A stretch of 13,512 nucleotides of DNA from the IMG/VR virus record IMGVR_UViG_2693429524_000013; one strand, 5' to 3'. Shown one piece after another: positions 1 through 9,202 of the stretch. The position numbers and the translations under genes are program-made. This DNA comes from a virus (taxonomy: Duplodnaviria; Heunggongvirae; Uroviricota; Caudoviricetes). Below the pieces are notes generated by a model. It saw only the letters and a program-made list of their open reading frames with translations, was not told the DNA's origin and ran no database searches. Every line of letters starts with the position of its first letter. The stretch's first letter is position 1.

Positions 1-235
1 GCAGTGATGCACAAACCAGGCAACGATAAACAGGCTAACAGTGATAGCGGCGCTCAATCAGCGCACTAAATCCTAACCAGTCCGGGAAAGAGGCTGGCTC
101 TATCGACCGCTCATGCACGGGACAATGCATACCTGATAAAGGATTCTCACAAGGGACCAATCGCGAGAAAAGAAGTGGAAAGGGGCTGATTTGTGGTGTA
201 TCACTACGGCCTCAAAAGAACACTATTACCTCTTT

Positions 236-3459: not shown

Positions 3460-3787
3460 TTGATCACCTGCGATTTAAATTAACTCCCCTCAAAGAGTTC
3501 CGGTATAACCTCTCAAACCGCGACAGGCTCGGGCCGAAAAGTTATGCCGGAAATCTAAAGGGAAATTGATACAAGGAAAGGGAGATAGCCCCGCACCGTC
3601 CAAGCGGGGGCTATTCCATATGGGGAAAACCAACAACAGTTGGCTGATAGTTCACAGTATGGTTACGGTTACTAGAGAGCACTATCACGAAAGGCACTCC
3701 CCCGAATCAGTTCAGGCTGCGGTCACATCAGCGGGGAAATACCTTTCGGGATAGCTACCCACACAGAAAACCCGCAAAAGAAAACTG

Positions 3788-3796
3788 TGTGGATAA
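3788..3796 (-). promoter_or_regulatory. perfect DnaA-box consensus TTATCCACA
   Basis: Plus strand reads TGTGGATAA, so the minus strand is TTATCCACA. Overlaps the 3' arm of an 8-bp inverted repeat CCACACAG (3759-3766) / CTGTGTGG (3785-3792). Single occurrence; within the leader of the head operon. Confidence 0.3.
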
Positions 3797-3943
3797 CTAG
3801 CCCAATAGGAGAATTAATCGACCACTCAACGATGATCAGGGTAGTGTTATTTATAAGGCGGCACCGCTACCTGGTCGCCGTTACTTTGGAGGAAAATACG
3901 GCAAATCAAGATCTTCTCACATTGATATTGACGCCATATGTAT

Positions 3944-3972
3944 ATTATATCAGTATTTACTCACATTGTCAA
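3944..3972 (-). promoter_or_regulatory. consensus sigma70 promoter reading leftward toward the head module
   Basis: On the minus strand: TTGACA (3972-3967), 17-bp spacer, TATAAT (3949-3944). Both hexamers are perfect consensus. Predicted TSS near 3937, giving a ~480-nt leader before the gene at 3459. Confidence 0.55.
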
Positions 3973-4195
3973 CACCCTGATTATATAAATTCTAATAATT
4001 AGCGTAGTAACGGTATTTTCAGACCTCTATCAATCCCATCAATACGTCACCCCACCCTTTAGACATATACATCTATCACTACTTTATAAAGCCTGATAGA
4101 TATCCGTTGATCCTGATCAAGGTTTTCCGGGGATTTACCCGGTTATAGTTCGAATCAAGGAAGGGGAGCATTGATAGCACCCAAACCGAACAAAC

Positions 4196-4213
4196 AAATC
4201 AACTTCTCGCAAA
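4196..4213 (+). promoter_or_regulatory. recurrent 18-nt leader motif AAATCAACTTCTCGCAAA, copy 1
   Basis: Exact 18-mer also at 4739-4756. In both cases it ends 11 nt before an ATG, with a purine-rich SD in between. Confidence 0.5.
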
Positions 4214-4224
4214 AGGTGATAGTT

Positions 4225-4347
4225 ATGGGTATCAAGAACAGTGCCAGCGCATGGCAAAAGGCCAGGTTTCATCACCCACACATTGTTAAGGCAATTGAGG
4301 TGGTTGGAGTGTTAGCCCTGATGTTAGCTCTGTGTGTGGAGGTGTGA
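4225..4347 (+). CDS. possible small hydrophobic peptide (40 aa)
   Basis: ATG at 4225 with AAGGTGA SD. Preceded 11 nt upstream by the recurrent motif AAATCAACTTCTCGCAAA. C-terminal half is hydrophobic (VVGVLALMLALCVEV). Below the 60-aa cutoff of the ORF track; uncertain. Confidence 0.3.
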   Translation: MGIKNSASAWQKARFHHPHIVKAIEVVGVLALMLALCVEV

Positions 4348-4449
4348 GATGGGCAAAGGAGGCAAAGCATTTTTTAATAGGTCTGGCTATCCTGGATGTT
4401 CTACTAATCATGATTGAGCGGAGTTTATGAACAGCATTGAGAGGAGTTT

Positions 4450-4710
4450 ATGACGGGGGCTAAAGATATCAGGAGACTGAGGGAAGAGCTGATAGCTGAA
4501 ATTAAAGCTAAGGCAAAGCAAATGGAGATAGCCGCACAAATGGATGTAGCGGAACAGATGTACAAGATGGTTGAAGAGGGAACACCACGACAGGTTATCG
4601 CTAAAACCTTCGGTGTGGGGATCGCCACCGTGCACAGAAGGCTGAAAGCCTATGCCGACTACCACAACATTGAGAGAGGGGAGGATGGGAGATTTAAGAA
4701 GAATAAATAG
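4450..4710 (+). CDS. small helix-turn-helix DNA-binding protein (86 aa)
   Basis: ORF 4450..4710 with GAGGAG SD. Segment TPRQVIAKTFGVGIATVHRRLK is a classic HTH pattern. N-terminal part reads as coiled-coil-like. Confidence 0.6.
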   Translation: MTGAKDIRRLREELIAEIKAKAKQMEIAAQMDVAEQMYKMVEEGTPRQVIAKTFGVGIATVHRRLKAYADYHNIERGEDGRFKKNK

Positions 4711-4738
4711 TGTGAACAGTCCAATAGGTTATTAACTT

Positions 4739-4756
4739 AAATCAACTTCTCGCAAA
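4739..4756 (+). promoter_or_regulatory. recurrent 18-nt leader motif, copy 2
   Basis: Identical to 4196-4213. Ends 11 nt before the ATG of the membrane-protein gene (4768). Confidence 0.5.
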
Positions 4757-4767
4757 GGGGTACCACT

Positions 4768-5289
4768 ATGTTATTCCAGAAAGACAAAGAATCAGTAAAT
4801 AAAAGGCTTTTTAAAGAACTGGTAAAAATGTTCTTTCAGTACACTGCAGCGTTTTTGATAGCCGGGCCTTGGTTAATGGCTATCTGTTTTTACCCTGCTA
4901 CCTTGTTTATTGGCAGTAGCAAGTTCGGCGATGGCCCGTTTCATGTGGATATTGGTTTTATAGATTCTCTCCTGATCCGTCCTATAAATGCTGTTCTCAA
5001 TGCTTTCTACTTCCCAACTAGTCTAGAGGGGTGGGCGGTAACCTGGGGTGTTTTAGGCTTAGCATATGTATATTGGTTGGTTGGCTTTTTGTGGGGTGCA
5101 ATCTGTGCTCTCCTCGATATTGATACAGGATCAAGCCGTAGGAGTAGTGGTAATAATAGCGGAGCGGGTGTATATGCACACGTAGGTACCAGAGGGGTAA
5201 GTATCACCGCAGGTACCCGATTCGCTGGCGGCTGGCTGAGTATAGGCAAACGCGGCGTTAGTTGGAGAAAAAGCAAAAAACTGTTCTGA
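4768..5289 (+). CDS. predicted membrane protein (173 aa)
   Basis: ORF 4768..5289. Recurrent motif ends 11 nt before the ATG, followed by AGGGG SD. At least two hydrophobic helices (FFQYTAAFLIAGPWLMAICFYPATLFIG and AVTWGVLGLAYVYWLVGFLWGAICALL) and a Gly/Ser/Arg-rich C-terminal tail. Followed by a strong intrinsic terminator. Confidence 0.6.
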   Translation: MLFQKDKESVNKRLFKELVKMFFQYTAAFLIAGPWLMAICFYPATLFIGSSKFGDGPFHVDIGFIDSLLIRPINAVLNAFYFPTSLEGWAVTWGVLGLAYVYWLVGFLWGAICALLDIDTGSSRRSSGNNSGAGVYAHVGTRGVSITAGTRFAGGWLSIGKRGVSWRKSKKLF

Positions 5290-5296
5290 CCTACCA

Positions 5297-5318
5297 GGGG
5301 GCCATCACGGCCCCTTTT
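5297..5318 (+). terminator. rho-independent terminator after the membrane-protein gene
   Basis: GC-rich 6-bp stem GGGGCC/GGCCCC with 5-nt loop, followed by TTTT (5315-5318). Lies 8 nt past the stop at 5289. Confidence 0.6.
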
Positions 5319-5404
5319 CTATTTCCAGTCGCTATAGCTCCTGAGTAATTCCACTCCCTGAGGTCGTGATCAATTCCACACCCTACCCCCTGATCAATTA
5401 ACCC

Positions 5405-5448
5405 CTATTTAATGGGTATTTAATGCCTATTTATTGATTTAATCCGTT
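5405..5448. repeat. AT-rich 11-bp tandem repeats (3-4 units)
   Basis: ctatttaatgg / gtatttaatgc / ctatttattga / tttaatccgtt in perfect tandem from 5405. Period is about one helical turn; candidate DNA-unwinding or bending element. Confidence 0.5.
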
Positions 5449-5514
5449 TTATGCCACAACCGCCCGGTTGACAGAGTAAGAGAGAGGGTGTAACCCTTTT
5501 TCGTAATACTAATG

Positions 5515-5530
5515 AAATCAATAAGTTAGC
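5515..5530 (+). repeat. 16-nt direct repeat AAATCAATAAGTTAGC, copy 1
   Basis: Exact 16-mer also at 13259-13274. Both copies are preceded 13-14 nt upstream by TAATA(C/T)T and lie shortly after a gene end. Confidence 0.5.
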
Positions 5531-6618
5531 TTAATAGGCCTTTTCTCTATTTTTGTCAAATTTAACATACCCTAAAAAACTGCAAAATCTGGCTGCAAGA
5601 TTATCTGCAGCTGGATTTCTTACACCTCATTTTGTGGTATCACCCTGACTAGTTTGTGCATAAATTGAACAGTTTTTAACATTTCCTCTTCACCTGGTAA
5701 CCACACAAAAAGCTAAAAACGAGGCACAGATAATCTTAGAGGCCTATTTTCTTGTTATCACTCTGGAAACGTCGTAGAAGTGATTTTGATGAAAGGCGAC
5801 CTACCCTATTACACCCCCATTTTTTGTTATCACAATTGCATCCTGTGTGGCTATATGGCTATGTGCTGAAAGCGGTCTCGGGTGTGGGTGTCAGAAATAT
5901 CCATTAGCGGTATTTGAGCTTATGGGTAACTCGTCTGAGGTGCCAGGCAGGCGCTCCCCTACCTCCCTTTTTTCTTCTAACAATTCTCAAATATCACACC
6001 ACTGCCCACCACGTTGCTATTATGTTAATTCTTAAGCTTTGCTGTATGTTGTGCACATTATTTATTCAGGTGGCTGTACGTAAATTCTGTGCCCACTGAT
6101 CATGATTTTTAAATCAGATTTTGTAGTGCGGTTTCTTAGTGCTGATAAGATCTATTATGTTAAATGCAATTTTCCCAACCCTTCAAATCAATGACTTACA
6201 TGTAAGCATGCACTAACACCACACACAGCACATTAGACGTATAGATGGCTATATCCCACATATTTGATTGTTTTGTAGTCATTCCCCTGATCATTTAACC
6301 AGTATAGTTTGTTATCTGCAGACCACAAAATCGGAATTTACATCTGATTAACATAATCTGTTAGCATGATCACCATTACCCACACAACAATAACCCCATG
6401 TAAGCCTCTTCAGGCAATTTATCGGCGTGTTGGTGTGAACAGTCTTTCATGTTCTTTATGTATCAGTTGTCCTGTGTGGTGATTTGGTGGACTGCCCCAG
6501 GGGCCATACTTATGATGCCCGGTCAACATAGCTGTTGATAAAATCAACGGGTGTTGACCTGCATATTTCCCACACATGAGAGGAAATCAGAGCAAAGAGA
6601 GAGGAGAGAGGTTTGTTA

Positions 6619-6668
6619 GTCACATATGGTGATTTGAGCTCATCTCAAACCTTCTACGAAGGCCTTTG
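6619..6668. repeat. tandem-hairpin element, copy A
   Basis: Hairpin 1: TTTGAG (6633-6638) / CTCAAA (6644-6649). CC linker. Hairpin 2: CCTTC (6650-6654) / GAAGG (6658-6662) with loop TAC. Flanked by TCACAT..GGTGATTTGAG and GGCCTTTG. Homologous to copy B. Confidence 0.5.
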
Positions 6669-6719
6669 CTAGTCAAAATCAAGTCACATTAGAGTCAAAT
6701 CAGATGCAATCAATCCCCC

Positions 6720-6778
6720 ACCTGTTGGGATTTCCCACATGTTCAACCATACACAGGAGCTAACCTGTTGGGATTTCC
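6720..6778. repeat. pair of 16-bp direct repeats ACCTGTTGGGATTTCC
   Basis: Identical 16-mers at 6720-6735 and 6763-6778 (43 bp apart). They share the ACCTGT core with the iterons immediately downstream. Confidence 0.6.
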
Positions 6779-6813
6779 TACAACCCCTTTCAGTCATACT
6801 CAGGCACCACACC

Positions 6814-7054
6814 CCGGTAAATATTTCCCTACTACCCCGGAGAATTTCTCCGCACTACCTGTAAAGAATTTTCACACCTGTGTGTTTATACAATCATACT
6901 CTCCTGTTTTGCAGTCATTGCACCCATGATACACAGCCCTAACCTGTAAAATATTTTTACTACCCCGCCAATAATACGGCCCATACCTGTAAAATATTTT
7001 TACTACTACCTGTCAAAATCTTTTACTACTACCTGTAAAAATATTTGACACTAA
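6814..7054. repeat. iteron array: six direct repeats of a ~21-23 bp unit
   Basis: Copies of CCTGTAAAATATTTTTACTAC-like units start at 6814, 6858, 6953, 6986, 7009 and 7032. The last three are exactly tandem at 23-bp spacing. Same orientation throughout; no ORF. Confidence 0.7.
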
Positions 7055-7101
7055 TAGATAAAGTAATAGACCACACAATAGATCCCCCTAACCCCCCAGG
7101 G

Positions 7102-7142
7102 GGGAATGGGGAGGGATCAGAGAGTGGGGAAGGTTTTCTAAG
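7102..7142. other. C6-A-G6 palindrome followed by G-tract-rich block
   Basis: CCCCCCAGGGGGG (7102-7114) followed by GGGGGGAATGGGGAGGGATCAGAGAGTGGGGAAGG. Four G-runs of 3 or more; possible G-quadruplex on the plus strand. Confidence 0.35.
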
Positions 7143-7245
7143 GGAAAAGCTTAACCCACAAATGAAAGCCTAAAGAGCATTAGCGACTCTTTAGGCAATC
7201 TGTGTGTGGGGTGACAATGTATTCCATACATGACACGTCACCCTG

Positions 7246-7316
7246 CTCACATGTGTGGTCCACTTCGTGGATTTGAGTTCACTCCGTAACTCAAACCCTC
7301 TACGAGGGCCTTGTGT
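7246..7316. repeat. tandem-hairpin element, copy B
   Basis: Hairpin 1: TTTGAGTT (7272-7279) / AACTCAAA (7288-7295). CC linker. Hairpin 2: CCCTC (7296-7300) / GAGGG (7304-7308) with loop TAC. Differs from copy A by a T-A to C-G double change that keeps the pair. Confidence 0.5.
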
Positions 7317-7410
7317 GGGGAGCGTAGTGCGATAGCACGTAGCTATATAATGTGGAGTCCGGATAAGAGACTTCTGTTTCCAATCCGGACCGTTTAAGCG
7401 AGTGGTTTCT

Positions 7411-7436
7411 CGCGCGCGTGCACGCACACATATATA
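7411..7436. other. 26-nt perfect alternating pyrimidine-purine tract (Z-DNA-prone)
   Basis: CGCGCGCGTGCACGCACACATATATA alternates pyrimidine/purine without a break for 26 nt. Read directly from the sequence. Confidence 0.5.
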
Positions 7437-7616
7437 AAGGATACACTCATAAATCGAAAATAAGGCCCCTAAATGGCCTTCTGGCTGCATTAACTAGTTT
7501 GAGTAGTGTAATTGCATTACCTGATGCTCAAATCGCGTTGTAGGGCCTCTTATGATGTTTGAGTTTAACACCCTCCAAAGTTTTAACAAAAAGTGCTCTC
7601 CCTCCATTGTGGGCCA

Positions 7617-7646
7617 TTGACAATCTTATTGCATAAATGCTATAAG
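7617..7646 (+). promoter_or_regulatory. possible second plus-strand promoter
   Basis: TTGACA (7617-7622), 18-bp spacer, TATAAG (7641-7646). Motif CCATTGACAAT recurs at 7745 within a perfect palindrome ATTGACAA-ttgg-TTGTCAAT (7746-7765). Confidence 0.3.
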
Positions 7647-7936
7647 TTATTCTGTTTTTGACACGGTAGGGGACATTAATAATGCTTACCCCTTTGCTGT
7701 GGACTTGTTTGTACCTATAGCTCGCCTAAATGATAATGATTCCCATTGACAATTGGTTGTCAATATGATAAGATTATAGATAGTGGGAGAAACAGATCCG
7801 GAGGTCAACGTGGAACTGAGCGACGCTATAGCGATCATCAACCTGGCTGTAATGTGGTGCGGTGTTGCCTACATAGCCGGAGTAACTGCAATCGACAACC
7901 TTGAAGAAAAAATGATAGATAAATACAAAAAGATTG

Positions 7937-7965
7937 TTGACAATCTCGCAAATAGCTGATAAAAT
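7937..7965 (+). promoter_or_regulatory. sigma70 promoter for the plus-strand operon
   Basis: TTGACA (7937-7942), 17-bp spacer, TAAAAT (7960-7965). The -35 sits in an imperfect palindrome GATTGTTGACAATC. About 120 nt upstream of the first gene (8088). Confidence 0.5.
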
Positions 7966-8016
7966 ATAAAGCATAGGGTAATTCTCATCATAGTGAATTT
8001 TCCTTTAATGAACTGG

Positions 8017-8044
8017 CGGGAGCTATTAGTTCCCGTTTCTTTTT
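8017..8044 (+). terminator. terminator-like hairpin in the leader of the plus-strand operon
   Basis: CGGGA (8017-8021), 9-nt loop, TCCCG (8031-8035), then TTTCTTTTT (8036-8044). Lies between the promoter at 7937-7965 and the first gene. Short stem, so modest confidence. Confidence 0.35.
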
Positions 8045-8087
8045 AACCCTATATCGCACAGGCGGTGAGCTAACAGGAGATTGAATC

Positions 8088-8317: not shown

Positions 8318-9202
8318 ATGGCAAACAATAAACTGGGGGCACATTTCACCCCCATTTTTAAACGTTTTATCAAGTATAATTTTGAAAATCCAATTGCAAA
8401 AACTACAACAGGCAAAGAGAGATTTAATTTAAATGCGACGGAATTGATAATTTACGGGGAAATGGTTGGCTTTCATTTAAACGGCAAAGAAATATTCATC
8501 TCGGAGCAGACCTTAGCAGATGATTGGGATTTTTCAAGACCAACGATTATTAAAGCTATTAAATCTCTAGTAAATGCTGGGATTATTTCTAAAGATAACC
8601 GGAAAGGCAAATCTAACATTTACAAACTGTTAATTACACCTGAGCAGTTTGATAAAATGTGCGATGAGCAGGGTATTAAAACCTTAGACAGTGTGGGAGA
8701 CAGCAAAGAGGCACCTGCTACACAGGCCCAAGATAATCAACAGGAAGCCCCAAAACAAGCCACACAGCAGCCTGAAAAGCCCGAGGCAATGCAATCCCCT
8801 TCCCAACCTAAAAAAGAACACAGAGAACGCCGTAGAGACGCTGGCAAACGTGAAATAGATGAGCACGGTTATCCGATTCTGACAAGCGATGAAATGAATG
8901 CCAGATATAAAGTAATTCAGGCCGCATTTAAAGATCAGAAGAGAATTAAATTATCTGAATTGCGTGATACATTTTACGGGCCGGAGGTGATGGATAAAAT
9001 TAAAGGCACTATTCCTGATAAAATCTGGAAAGAGGAAGATTACTGGCACCTGACAGAGCAGGCCCTTAAGGTAGCTCAACACGTGGTTAAAAGAGGCAAA
9101 TCAATTATTATTGATTCTATTAGTCATGGCTATGATGCACCGAAAGAAAGGTTGTGGAACAACTGCAAGCTTGTAAAAGGCGAATTGACAATTACAAAAT
9201 AA
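8318..9202 (+). CDS. winged-helix DNA-binding protein (294 aa), possibly replication-initiator/organiser-like
   Basis: ORF 8318..9202 with GAGGGA SD. N-terminal pattern (ELIIYGEMVGF...ISEQTLADDWDFSRPTIIKAIKSLVNAGIIS) resembles wHTH domains of phage O-type/DnaD-like replication proteins. Q/P/K-rich low-complexity linker, then a C-terminal domain. Family assignment is inference. Confidence 0.55.
   Translation: MANNKLGAHFTPIFKRFIKYNFENPIAKTTTGKERFNLNATELIIYGEMVGFHLNGKEIFISEQTLADDWDFSRPTIIKAIKSLVNAGIISKDNRKGKSNIYKLLITPEQFDKMCDEQGIKTLDSVGDSKEAPATQAQDNQQEAPKQATQQPEKPEAMQSPSQPKKEHRERRRDAGKREIDEHGYPILTSDEMNARYKVIQAAFKDQKRIKLSELRDTFYGPEVMDKIKGTIPDKIWKEEDYWHLTEQALKVAQHVVKRGKSIIIDSISHGYDAPKERLWNNCKLVKGELTITK

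Follow-up and report, generated by a model that had tools for sequence, protein, structure and literature searches.

A gene-poor third of a small circular Escherichia coli plasmid: the case for a plasmid-resident satellite of rV5-like phages

What could occupy some 4.6 kb of nearly gene-free DNA on a genetic element of only 13,512 nucleotides? The question is raised by positions 3460-8087 of the IMG/VR record IMGVR_UViG_2693429524_000013, classified in the Caudoviricetes and here called the window (the whole stretch of DNA that was analyzed, 13,512 nt). A first-pass annotation, made from the letters alone, had described this region as poor in open reading frames (ORFs) and dense in repeats, and had offered three explanations: a replication origin or incompatibility region, a regulatory hub, or one or more long structured noncoding RNAs. 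This list is partly supported, in that each candidate fits one part of the region and none fits all of it. The main point, which was not visible to the first-pass annotation, is the relationship to rV5-like phages, together with a XerC/XerD (XerCD) site and a copy of the boundary of the phage terminal repeat. The reading that accounts best for the anatomy, conservation, noncoding nature and phage homologies of the region, to which we give a probability of roughly 0.6, is that the window represents a plasmid-resident satellite of rV5-like phages, and that its gene-poor third serves as a hub for replication, resolution, packaging and regulation.

The window is one entire circular E. coli plasmid of ~13.5 kb, and aligns over its full length with other circular E. 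coli plasmids (13.2-13.7 kb, ~92-94% identity). The plasmid is present in 7 of 5,426 complete E. coli genomes, without a single chromosomal copy, and further copies occur on contigs of ~13.4-14.3 kb; ~20 relatives were compared. Its sources are humans, chicken, cattle and feral pig, spread over several continents; mobility (MOB) typing classes it as non-mobilizable, and it has no mobilization genes. The region and its blocks were compared by megablast and by sensitive blastn with 50,697 phage records and with E. coli chromosomes; matches came only from the plasmid family, and Rfam gave none at the gathering threshold. The literature search yielded no account of these plasmids.

The ~16 genes of the plasmid form two divergent groups. 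On the minus strand are the genes of a neck/tail-completion protein, a Dit-like tube initiator, a protein of 83 aa, the major capsid protein and a 111-aa protein; on the plus strand are a small cassette (Table 1) and the genes of a 69-aa protein, of a replication initiator of lambda-O/DnaD-like type (Rep; 8318-9202), of several small proteins and, at 700 aa, of the tape-measure protein. The structural genes are all intact and under purifying selection, with codon positions 1 and 2 far less divergent than position 3. Pfam and PHROG scans of all sizeable ORFs found no portal, terminase, protease, sheath, baseplate or lysis genes, and no integrase, psu, delta, sid, alpA or alpha primase-helicase genes; partition genes are not encoded either. 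The earlier descriptions of “divergent phage operons” and of a “phage-plasmid type element” were therefore good guesses, but a gene set without portal and terminase fits a satellite, and an element of 13.5 kb that also lacks sheath, baseplate and lysis genes is not a phage-plasmid. The virion and packaging genes are missing according to these scans, and the element would presumably depend on a helper.

The rV5-like Vequintavirinae are virulent E. coli myoviruses of ~136 kb, typified by rV5. They contain the closest phage relatives of four element proteins, with identities of 51% for Dit, 45% for the neck protein, 26% for the tape-measure protein and, in direct pairwise comparison over its full length, 24% for the major capsid protein; tblastn of the capsid protein against phages gave nothing at 1e-5, its relation to rV5-like phages being visible only in pairwise comparison. 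It is of note that rV5-like phages possess a gene-free region of their own, of ~2.5 kb, which was remarked upon in 2013 and left unexplained (PMC3606486).

The link between the two gene-free regions lies within a 1-kb conserved noncoding block of the element, 5462-6457 (block B). When the noncoding region of the element was compared with the complete phage MaxTheCat, the best match in 135 kb was a run of 23 identities in 24 positions at 5972-5995, located in the gene-free stretch of the phage; this segment is an invariant run of block B (blastn-short E 5e-4; profile nhmmer E 0.004), and the two best profile matches of block B both fall in that same stretch. Positions 5937-5998 align without gaps to MaxTheCat 91573-91634 with 39 identities in 62 (z 6.9), the runner-up over the whole phage and both strands scoring 32. 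In the Gotham record, a direct terminal repeat (DTR) of 459 bp is identical at both ends, with boundaries that agree with the start and end points of other records; the left boundary lies inside the 2.5-kb gene-free region, and the 62-nt match falls exactly on it. The phage sequence reads GTGCTGCCA up to the left boundary and GGCGGACG beyond it, followed by AATTCTCAAATATC 36 nt on, and the element reads GAGGTGCCA GGCAGGCG, followed by AATTCTCAAATATC after exactly 36 nt. The phage-like parts of this copy are invariant in all element variants, while the directly flanking bases vary. A DTR with fixed, T7-type termini has been documented for KPP-1, a member of the Vequintavirinae (PMC9862379), although one Vequintavirus paper inferred headful packaging instead (PMC13211470).

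Block B also carries a putative XerC/XerD core of the dif/cer type. Scored against E. coli dif, it agrees at 19 of 22 arm positions, including 11/11 in the XerD arm, and has a 6-bp spacer, a result reached by none of 200 shuffles; neither the XerD arm nor the spacer varies within the plasmid family, and one IHF consensus lies near the site. By its sequence, 6138-6165 thus qualifies as a candidate core of the dif/cer/psi type. A perfect dif-type site, GGTGCGCATAA-TGGGTA-TTATGTTAAAT, with 11/11 in both arms, lies inside the DTR of all three phages examined (MaxTheCat 91,429-91,456, or L025:41429-41456; navn, L028:2816-2843; and Gotham, L029/L027), at +169..196 from the left boundary, where the chance expectation is ~5e-8. 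In the element, the Xer site lies at +192..219 from the boundary copy; over 20 elements, the distance from the boundary motif to the XerD arm ranges from 200 to 210 nt, with ~209 nt in most of them. The presence of boundary copy and Xer site at a phage-like spacing indicates that block B is built like the terminal repeat region of the phage, and the phage sites suggest that host XerCD may act on the rV5-like phage genome, in circularization or concatemer resolution. In the literature, Xer use is known for filamentous phages, gokushoviruses and plasmid prophages; no report was found for the repeats of Vequintavirus or rV5-like phages, nor of a Xer site beside a phage-end copy that is mirrored in the phage terminal repeat, and Rfam had no match to the phage terminal region. 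One relative (L009, NZ_CP043822.1, 39,610 bp) is a head-to-tail trimer of the element whose copies differ slightly, with frameshifts between them; the record may reflect a true multimer or an artefact of assembly, and is consistent with multimers in need of resolution.

That the region is noncoding, and maintained as such, is supported by alignments of 10 and subsequently ~20 relatives. Beyond the cassette and a 49-aa small ORF (Table 1), it holds just short ORFs without homologs, which confirms the ORF poverty seen by the first-pass annotation; stretches of ~1 kb and ~2.3 kb are left unannotated by the Prokaryotic Genome Annotation Pipeline (PGAP) and other gene callers in ~20 relatives, ten of the longest ORF fragments had no PHROG or Pfam match, and no tRNA or tmRNA was found. 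Conservation forms a mosaic, in which two near-invariant, gap-free blocks, ~3577-4065 (block A) and 5462-6457, are set among highly variable parts (the last cassette gene, the iteron region, 7060-7300 and the Rep gene). Pairwise divergence is 0.015 over 3640-3900 and 0.048 over 5462-6457, against 0.05-0.18 at four-fold sites of neighboring genes, and the noncoding blocks thus evolve 2-6 times more slowly than synonymous sites. Within block B, the 174 substitutions are spread 62/59/53 across the three phases, without periodicity, and 1-nt indels in homopolymers are tolerated. Low divergence, lack of periodicity and single-nucleotide indels together show that the blocks are under purifying selection and do not encode protein. 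The first-pass annotation had itself held up degraded coding sequence, or a lack of conservation, against its view; the blocks are conserved across relatives, and a coding or pseudogene reading was rejected on the phase-neutral substitutions and the lack of protein-family matches. The idea that lost portal and terminase genes decayed here, or that the region is neutral junk, does draw on the fact that the missing phage genes would need about its length; it is nevertheless already largely refuted and hardly credible, given that tested frames have no protein-family similarity, that divergence is so far below the synonymous rate, and that length and architecture are kept in ~20 relatives.

A second alternative is that block B is filled by one or more long structured noncoding RNAs, comparable to the large phage-associated RNAs. 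Its 1 kb of conserved, gap-free, noncoding sequence and its composition skews, which resemble those of minus-strand transcription units, speak for such an RNA. However, neither strand of block B shows excess folding (mean z -0.10 and -0.06), and a large structured RNA there was rejected on this ground; no strong promoter was found inside the block or facing it, Rfam gave no match at permissive thresholds, and DNA sites, namely the phage boundary and the Xer site, account for two of the longest runs without variation. This alternative is therefore very improbable, and block B as a whole had no match in phage records or E. coli chromosomes either. The expectation of long structured RNA is borne out only by the minus-strand leader of ~480 nt that precedes the capsid operon.

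This leader is preceded by a consensus sigma-70 promoter, whose design, TTGACA-N17-TGATAAAATA, is kept by a divergent relative (L010) with an 82% identical capsid protein. Leader divergence is 0.015, versus ~0.10 at synonymous sites, and ~230 nt are almost invariant across 19 variants. Its RNA folds with a z of -6.1 relative to shuffles, and folding is strand-asymmetric, with z values down to -5.8 on the minus strand and of -0.6 on the plus strand over the same folding window. RNAalifold predicts 136 pairs, of which hardly any are broken and one is compensatory, as well as a long-range helix in which the 5' part of the leader pairs with the Shine-Dalgarno/start region. The hairpin at 3581-3617 may, judging from its sequence, act as a terminator in the window family, where its U-tract is weak; the L010 equivalent is a canonical stem followed by U9. 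L010 also keeps the long hairpin at 3750-3802, with an identical 11-nt loop and a different distal stem. Searches of the leader and region against Rfam 15 gave nothing at the gathering threshold and only chance-level matches at E values up to 5. The leader is probably a regulatory device by which the capsid operon stays silent in the absence of a signal, with termination, Rho or masking of the ribosome-binding site as possible mechanisms. In lambdoid phages, the PR'-tR' unit, which is controlled by Q antitermination, places a strong constitutive promoter and a long untranslated leader with a terminator before the structural genes. The likeness is one of layout only, as there is neither sequence similarity nor a Q-like gene; of the hallmarks of attenuator-type leaders, promoter and structured leader are present in the element, and the U-tract is canonical in L010 and weak in the window family.

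The right-hand part of the region holds a further stretch of phage-like noncoding DNA, a module of ~270 nt. In the window, the similarity is weak (7312-7524 versus phage 131,686-131,889; nhmmer E 7e-4); sister plasmids all match the same phage locus, with best nhmmer E values of 4e-21, 2e-18 and 1.5e-16, and in whole-element searches the module is the second-best DNA-level similarity to phage, after the Dit gene. In 119 Vequintavirus records the phage segment is conserved; some of them annotate a 56-aa hypothetical ORF in it, and others leave it empty. This “hypothetical protein” (L026:31687-31857, bas57_0219; rv5_gp074 in rV5) overlaps the part shared with the plasmids, and the 5-nt, non-triplet indels between phage and elements argue that module and ORF are noncoding. 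Between two conserved anchors, the phages and two element types carry perfect inverted repeats with unrelated arms (ACCGAC/GTCGGT, GCTGCC/GGCAGC and GTCCGGAT/ATCCGGAC); the stem thus co-varies between phage and element types, while RNA folding exceeds that of shuffles in the window type only, and the module is either an RNA or a protein-binding DNA element. It lies just upstream of strong plus-strand promoters in the element, and its phage counterpart lies just downstream of a putative transcriptional regulator. The structural genes of the element are not directly preceded by TGGTAAAATA, the motif of phage late promoters. The suggestion of a regulatory hub is supported by the 12/12 promoter of the capsid operon, by two other strong promoters and by terminators, and also by the homology of the module to noncoding phage DNA.

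The origin proposed by the first-pass annotation can be placed at ~6458-7060, that is, in only ~0.6 kb of the 4.6 kb. Iterons of 23 bp occupy 6856-7052, with related copies at 6720, 6763, 6811 and 6834; DnaA-like boxes cluster at 6376-6927, and domain scans assign the Rep N-terminus to an HTH_36/DnaD_N/O-like type. Rep is only 27-82% identical to that of the window in plasmids whose identity is otherwise 92-98%, and the dominant iteron word changes with Rep type, albeit imperfectly; such co-variation is expected of an exchangeable module of Rep and origin specificity, and supports the origin idea for this ~0.6 kb. With multiple direct repeats of 17-23 bp near a Rep gene, 6720-7052 has the sequence of a predicted iteron-type origin. 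The iteron types ACCTGTTGGGATTTCCCACA, ACCCCGGTAAATATTTCCC and TACCTGTAAAATATTTTTAC are mixed in the window, and each is dominant in other variants with a different Rep, a mixture that may reflect cross-incompatibility or be left over from a module swap. The copies of the two-hairpin element that brackets the iterons differ by a compensatory change (CCTTC/GAAGG to CCCTC/GAGGG).

Could the entire region, in line with the first candidate of the first-pass annotation, be no more than the maintenance DNA of an iteron plasmid (origin, incompatibility, partition and resolution), with no phage-directed function? In favor of this stand the iterons, the DnaA-like boxes, the IHF and Xer sites and the presence of a Rep gene. 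Nonetheless, such features cover well under 1.5 kb, partition genes are lacking, and the capsid-operon leader, the phage-end match and the phage-homologous module (E values to 4e-21) would be left unexplained, so that an ordinary maintenance region is a quite improbable account of the whole.

The repeats reported initially are real, in the form of iterons, a tandem 11-mer, a duplicated hairpin element and recurrent elements of 18 and 21 nt. An alternating purine-pyrimidine run was read from the sequence at ~7411-7436. Word bias is evident for CCACACA/TGTGTGG, found 14 times against 1.5 expected (z ~9); TCACAT, with 6 copies in the region, all on the plus strand, is in only modest excess. CCACACA has a density of 3.0/kb in the element region, and of 2.8/kb in the phage gene-free region versus 0.36/kb genome-wide; with 7 copies against 0.78 expected (~8-fold, P 2e-5), that stretch is the densest 2.5-kb window of the phage, and a second phage cluster surrounds the shared module. 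Several of the element sites are conserved, and co-enrichment in the noncoding DNA of both partners gives reason to think that the word matters. A reading of these words as DnaA boxes was rejected, only ~3 of 14 sites fitting TTWTNCACA by our own reading of their contexts. In the hypervariable spacer, copies of TGTGTGG(G) (7203, 7252, 7312 and the homologous positions in alignment columns ~120-320) often edge large indels between variants, as if they were recombination joints.

Taken together, these features can be arranged into a working scheme. The constitutive consensus promoter would feed the ~480-nt leader, whose terminator-like hairpin and helix masking the ribosome-binding site would probably hold the capsid operon off until a signal, most likely phage infection. 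The iteron origin would be served by the plasmid's own lambda-O-like Rep, and the XerCD site would resolve plasmid multimers. Helper terminase may recognize plasmid concatemers, cut them at the boundary copy ~190 bp upstream of the Xer site, and package them; after injection, the Xer site (if inside a terminal redundancy) or host recombination could re-circularize the DNA, in a manner comparable to Cre-lox of P1. Finally, the module at 7303-7577, upstream of the promoters of the Rep/tail operon, may couple this operon to helper regulators.

A number of observations weigh against this scheme. The case is purely computational; transcription and its termination or antitermination, cutting by terminase, packaging, activity of the Xer site and dependence on a helper are all predictions. 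A right DTR boundary, which would complete the packaged end, has no counterpart in the element, where its best gapless match scores at chance level; the Xer site is oriented opposite to that of the phage relative to the boundary, and with matches at 8 of 11 positions in the window and, by our own count, at 7 of 11 in most relatives, the XerC arm is weak. Most of block B (5462-5930 and 6170-6457) and the CCACACA word have no assigned role. In the almost invariant leader there is only one compensatory pair, and the canonical terminator occurs only in L010. The strongest DNA-level similarity to phage is that of the Dit gene and not of the noncoding modules; protein identities to known rV5-like phages are low, so that the similarities could be ancestral, or the actual helper a relative not yet sampled. 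A 16/17 match of the iterons to phage sequence was seen, but an iteron position weight matrix had no specific match in the phage gap, and a capsid-based search of IMG/VR viral contigs did not recover the element. Further resemblances to the phage terminal region, among them that of the CCCCTGATCAATTAACCC element and that of the block A promoter region to the sequence after the DTR, beat mononucleotide shuffles and not genome-wide searches, and are suggestive only.

Several of these points also bear on the main alternative, in which the plasmid is neither packaged nor transferred, its phage-like parts being either leftovers of an rV5-like ancestor or, on a defense plasmid, decoys for terminase and regulators together with capsid and tail proteins that poison assembly. 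Divergent homologs of structural proteins could indeed interfere with assembly, and tail-assembly interference by mobile elements has been reported (PMC11364771). The single DTR boundary and the absence of the element from IMG/VR by capsid search agree with this possibility as well. Against it stand structural genes that are intact and under purifying selection, global spread without mobilization genes, and a boundary copy that is invariant between variable flanks; no known defense model matched, and defense-system models in general gave nothing convincing on the element. A relic or decoy is therefore unlikely, and it should be kept in mind that known satellites both interfere and transfer, interference not excluding satellite transfer.

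As a satellite, the element would be most like P4 in its mode of working, by analogy of plasmid state, own replication and a putative copy of the helper packaging site. P4, whose helper is P2, exists as a multicopy plasmid with its own replication protein and origin, carries a copy of cos, depends on its helper for most of its morphogenesis, and is controlled by leader transcripts and termination. It also has an integrase, Sid, Psu and Delta, and a primase-helicase, lacks capsid and tail genes, and exploits a temperate phage. The element has no integrase and none of those genes, but encodes its own capsid, neck, tube-initiator and tape-measure proteins, and its closest phages are virulent myoviruses with short terminal repeats instead of cos ends; its candidate packaging site, the 62-nt copy of a DTR boundary, would be a different kind of end. 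In having its own capsid gene it resembles capsid-forming phage-inducible chromosomal islands (cf-PICIs), which encode their own capsid proteins and borrow the rest. In having virulent phage relatives it resembles the PICI-like elements (PLE) and the phage-inducible chromosomal minimalist islands (PICMI; PMC10803314), both of which parasitize virulent phages. All three, however, are chromosomal islands with integrases; cf-PICIs have portal, protease and small terminase genes and use helper tails, whereas the element, which is always a plasmid, shares only the capsid protein with that gene set and carries tail genes.

Individual modules likewise have familiar counterparts. Multimers are resolved by Cre-lox in P1, by cer in ColE1 and by psi in pSC101, and P1 also uses its system to cyclize terminally redundant injected DNA. 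The element differs from P1 in that, judging from its site, the host recombinase would replace a recombinase of its own, the 11-6-11 core with a perfect XerD arm being of the cer/psi type. As in iteron theta replicons with lambda-O/DnaD-like initiators, there are 20-23-bp direct repeats, DnaA-like boxes and an initiator type that changes with the iterons; unlike in the usual ones, three iteron types are mixed, the array lies ~1.3 kb upstream of rep, and a duplicated two-hairpin element brackets it.

The coordinates of these and other features are collected in Table 1.

Table 1. Features of the gene-poor region and its immediate surroundings (window coordinates; functional labels are predictions from sequence)
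Feature	Position	Strand	Remarks
Leader of 111-aa/capsid operon	3460-3937	-	~480 nt, conserved 5' leader; untranslated up to ATG of 111-aa gene
Terminator-like hairpin	3581-3617	-	15-bp stem in consensus fold, then C-rich, G-poor tract
Small leader hairpin	3630-3643	-	compensatory change: CCAAC/GUUGG in 8, CCGAC/GUCGG in 11
Long leader hairpin	3750-3802	-	arms CCACACAG/CUGUGUGG; perfect DnaA box TTATCCACA at 3788-3796
Consensus sigma-70 promoter	3944-3972	-	TTGACA-17-TATAAT plus TG extension; 12/12 match; faces capsid operon
21-nt element AAATCAACTTCTCGCAAAAGG	4196-4216, 4739-4759	+	before start of 40-aa small ORF; before 173-aa gene
Small-gene cassette	4225-5289	+	40-aa small ORF 4225-4347; HTH_7 protein 4450-4710; hypervariable 173-aa protein 4768-5289
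Intrinsic terminator	5296-5316	+	after cassette
Tandem 11-mer CCTATTTAATG	5404-5433		2.7 copies
Block B	5462-6457		1 kb, conserved, noncoding; IHF consensus sites 5516, 6186; perfect DnaA box 5655
Copy of left DTR boundary of rV5-like phages	5937-5998	+	predicted terminase cut between 5945 and 5946
Boundary-copy segments	within 5937-5998		GTGCCAGGCAGGCG, TAACAATTCTCAAATATC
XerC/XerD (dif/cer-type) core	6138-6165	+	AGTGCTGATAA-GATCTA-TTATGTTAAAT; 11-6-11 anatomy
Two-hairpin element	6631-6666 (copy 1), 7270-7312 (copy 2), 7542-7565 (inverted partial)		brackets iterons
Iteron array	6720-7052	+	at least 9 copies, three related 20-23-bp types; putative replication origin by repeats and cognate Rep
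Hypervariable palindrome-rich spacer	7060-7302		hairpin/terminator-like sites 7084-7103, 7168-7196
Module homologous to rV5-like noncoding segment	7303-7577	+	~270 nt; MaxTheCat 131583-131932
Module contents	7357-7390; ~7411-7436; 7507-7516		inverted repeat; alternating purine/pyrimidine; near-palindrome TGTAATTGCA
Promoter	7746-7774	+	TTGACA-17-TAAGAT; further TTGACA copy ~7619
49-aa hydrophobic small ORF	7810-7959	+	conserved; GGAGG Shine-Dalgarno, GTG start; PGAP WP_157794903 in most relatives
Promoter	7937-7965	+	TTGACA-17-TAAAAT plus TG extension (TGATAAAATA); extended -10 identical to that of phage late promoters
Terminator	8015-8037	+	after 49-aa small ORF

Some features outside the main argument merit mention. 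The gene at 4768-5289, which follows the HTH_7 regulator, is the most variable coding segment, existing in several unrelated-looking versions of 173-239 aa; its product had no family match, defense models included, and may be a diversifying exclusion or host-interaction protein. The 21-nt element, strongly conserved in L010, is possibly a shared translation or regulatory signal. The spacer at 7060-7302 folds on both strands with z values of -5 to -8. The 49-aa small ORF, without a family match, has a layout reminiscent of a type I toxin-antitoxin system or a small membrane effector, and minus-strand promoter-like sites at 7940-7912 and 7763-7736 lie antisense to it or near it. Within the structural operon, the minus-strand intergenic stretches 1501-1620 and 1921-2100 (between the capsid, 83-aa and Dit genes) fold strongly (z -4.6 to -5.7) and vary among relatives; the structures are probably terminators or processing sites. 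On the phage side, ~18-23 GenBank records named as Campylobacter phages are ~93% identical to E. coli rV5-like phages over the regions discussed here, and look mislabeled or like contaminants. Lastly, one relative on a 30-kb contig (L011; 13400-21041) has acquired cargo in the form of two aminoglycoside phosphotransferase (APH)/strAB-like genes, an insertion sequence and TetR-family genes; the plasmid family is thus able to carry antibiotic-resistance genes, which offer a natural selectable marker.

If the proposal is correct, a plasmid-resident satellite with capsid and tail genes that lives on a virulent myovirus would join the short list of satellite types. More specifically, and at somewhat less than even odds, it would define a class of iteron plasmids with capsid and part of a tail that exploit virulent rV5-like (Vequintavirus) myoviruses by way of a terminal-repeat-boundary copy and host XerCD, and there is a fair chance that the element may come to be recognized as such a new class. 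Current satellite detection schemes all need an integrase or a fixed gene set, and the element fails them. Satellite transfer would explain the spread of small plasmids typed as “non-mobilizable”, including the 30-kb relative with strAB and tetracycline-resistance-type genes. It would also provide a testable function for two gene-free stretches, that of the plasmid and the 2.5 kb of rV5-like phages with their DTR and dif-type site, with the corollary that strictly lytic myoviruses may use host chromosome-dimer resolution on their own genomes. As rV5-like phages are employed in phage cocktails and in typing, a plasmid that rides or blocks them would be of practical interest.

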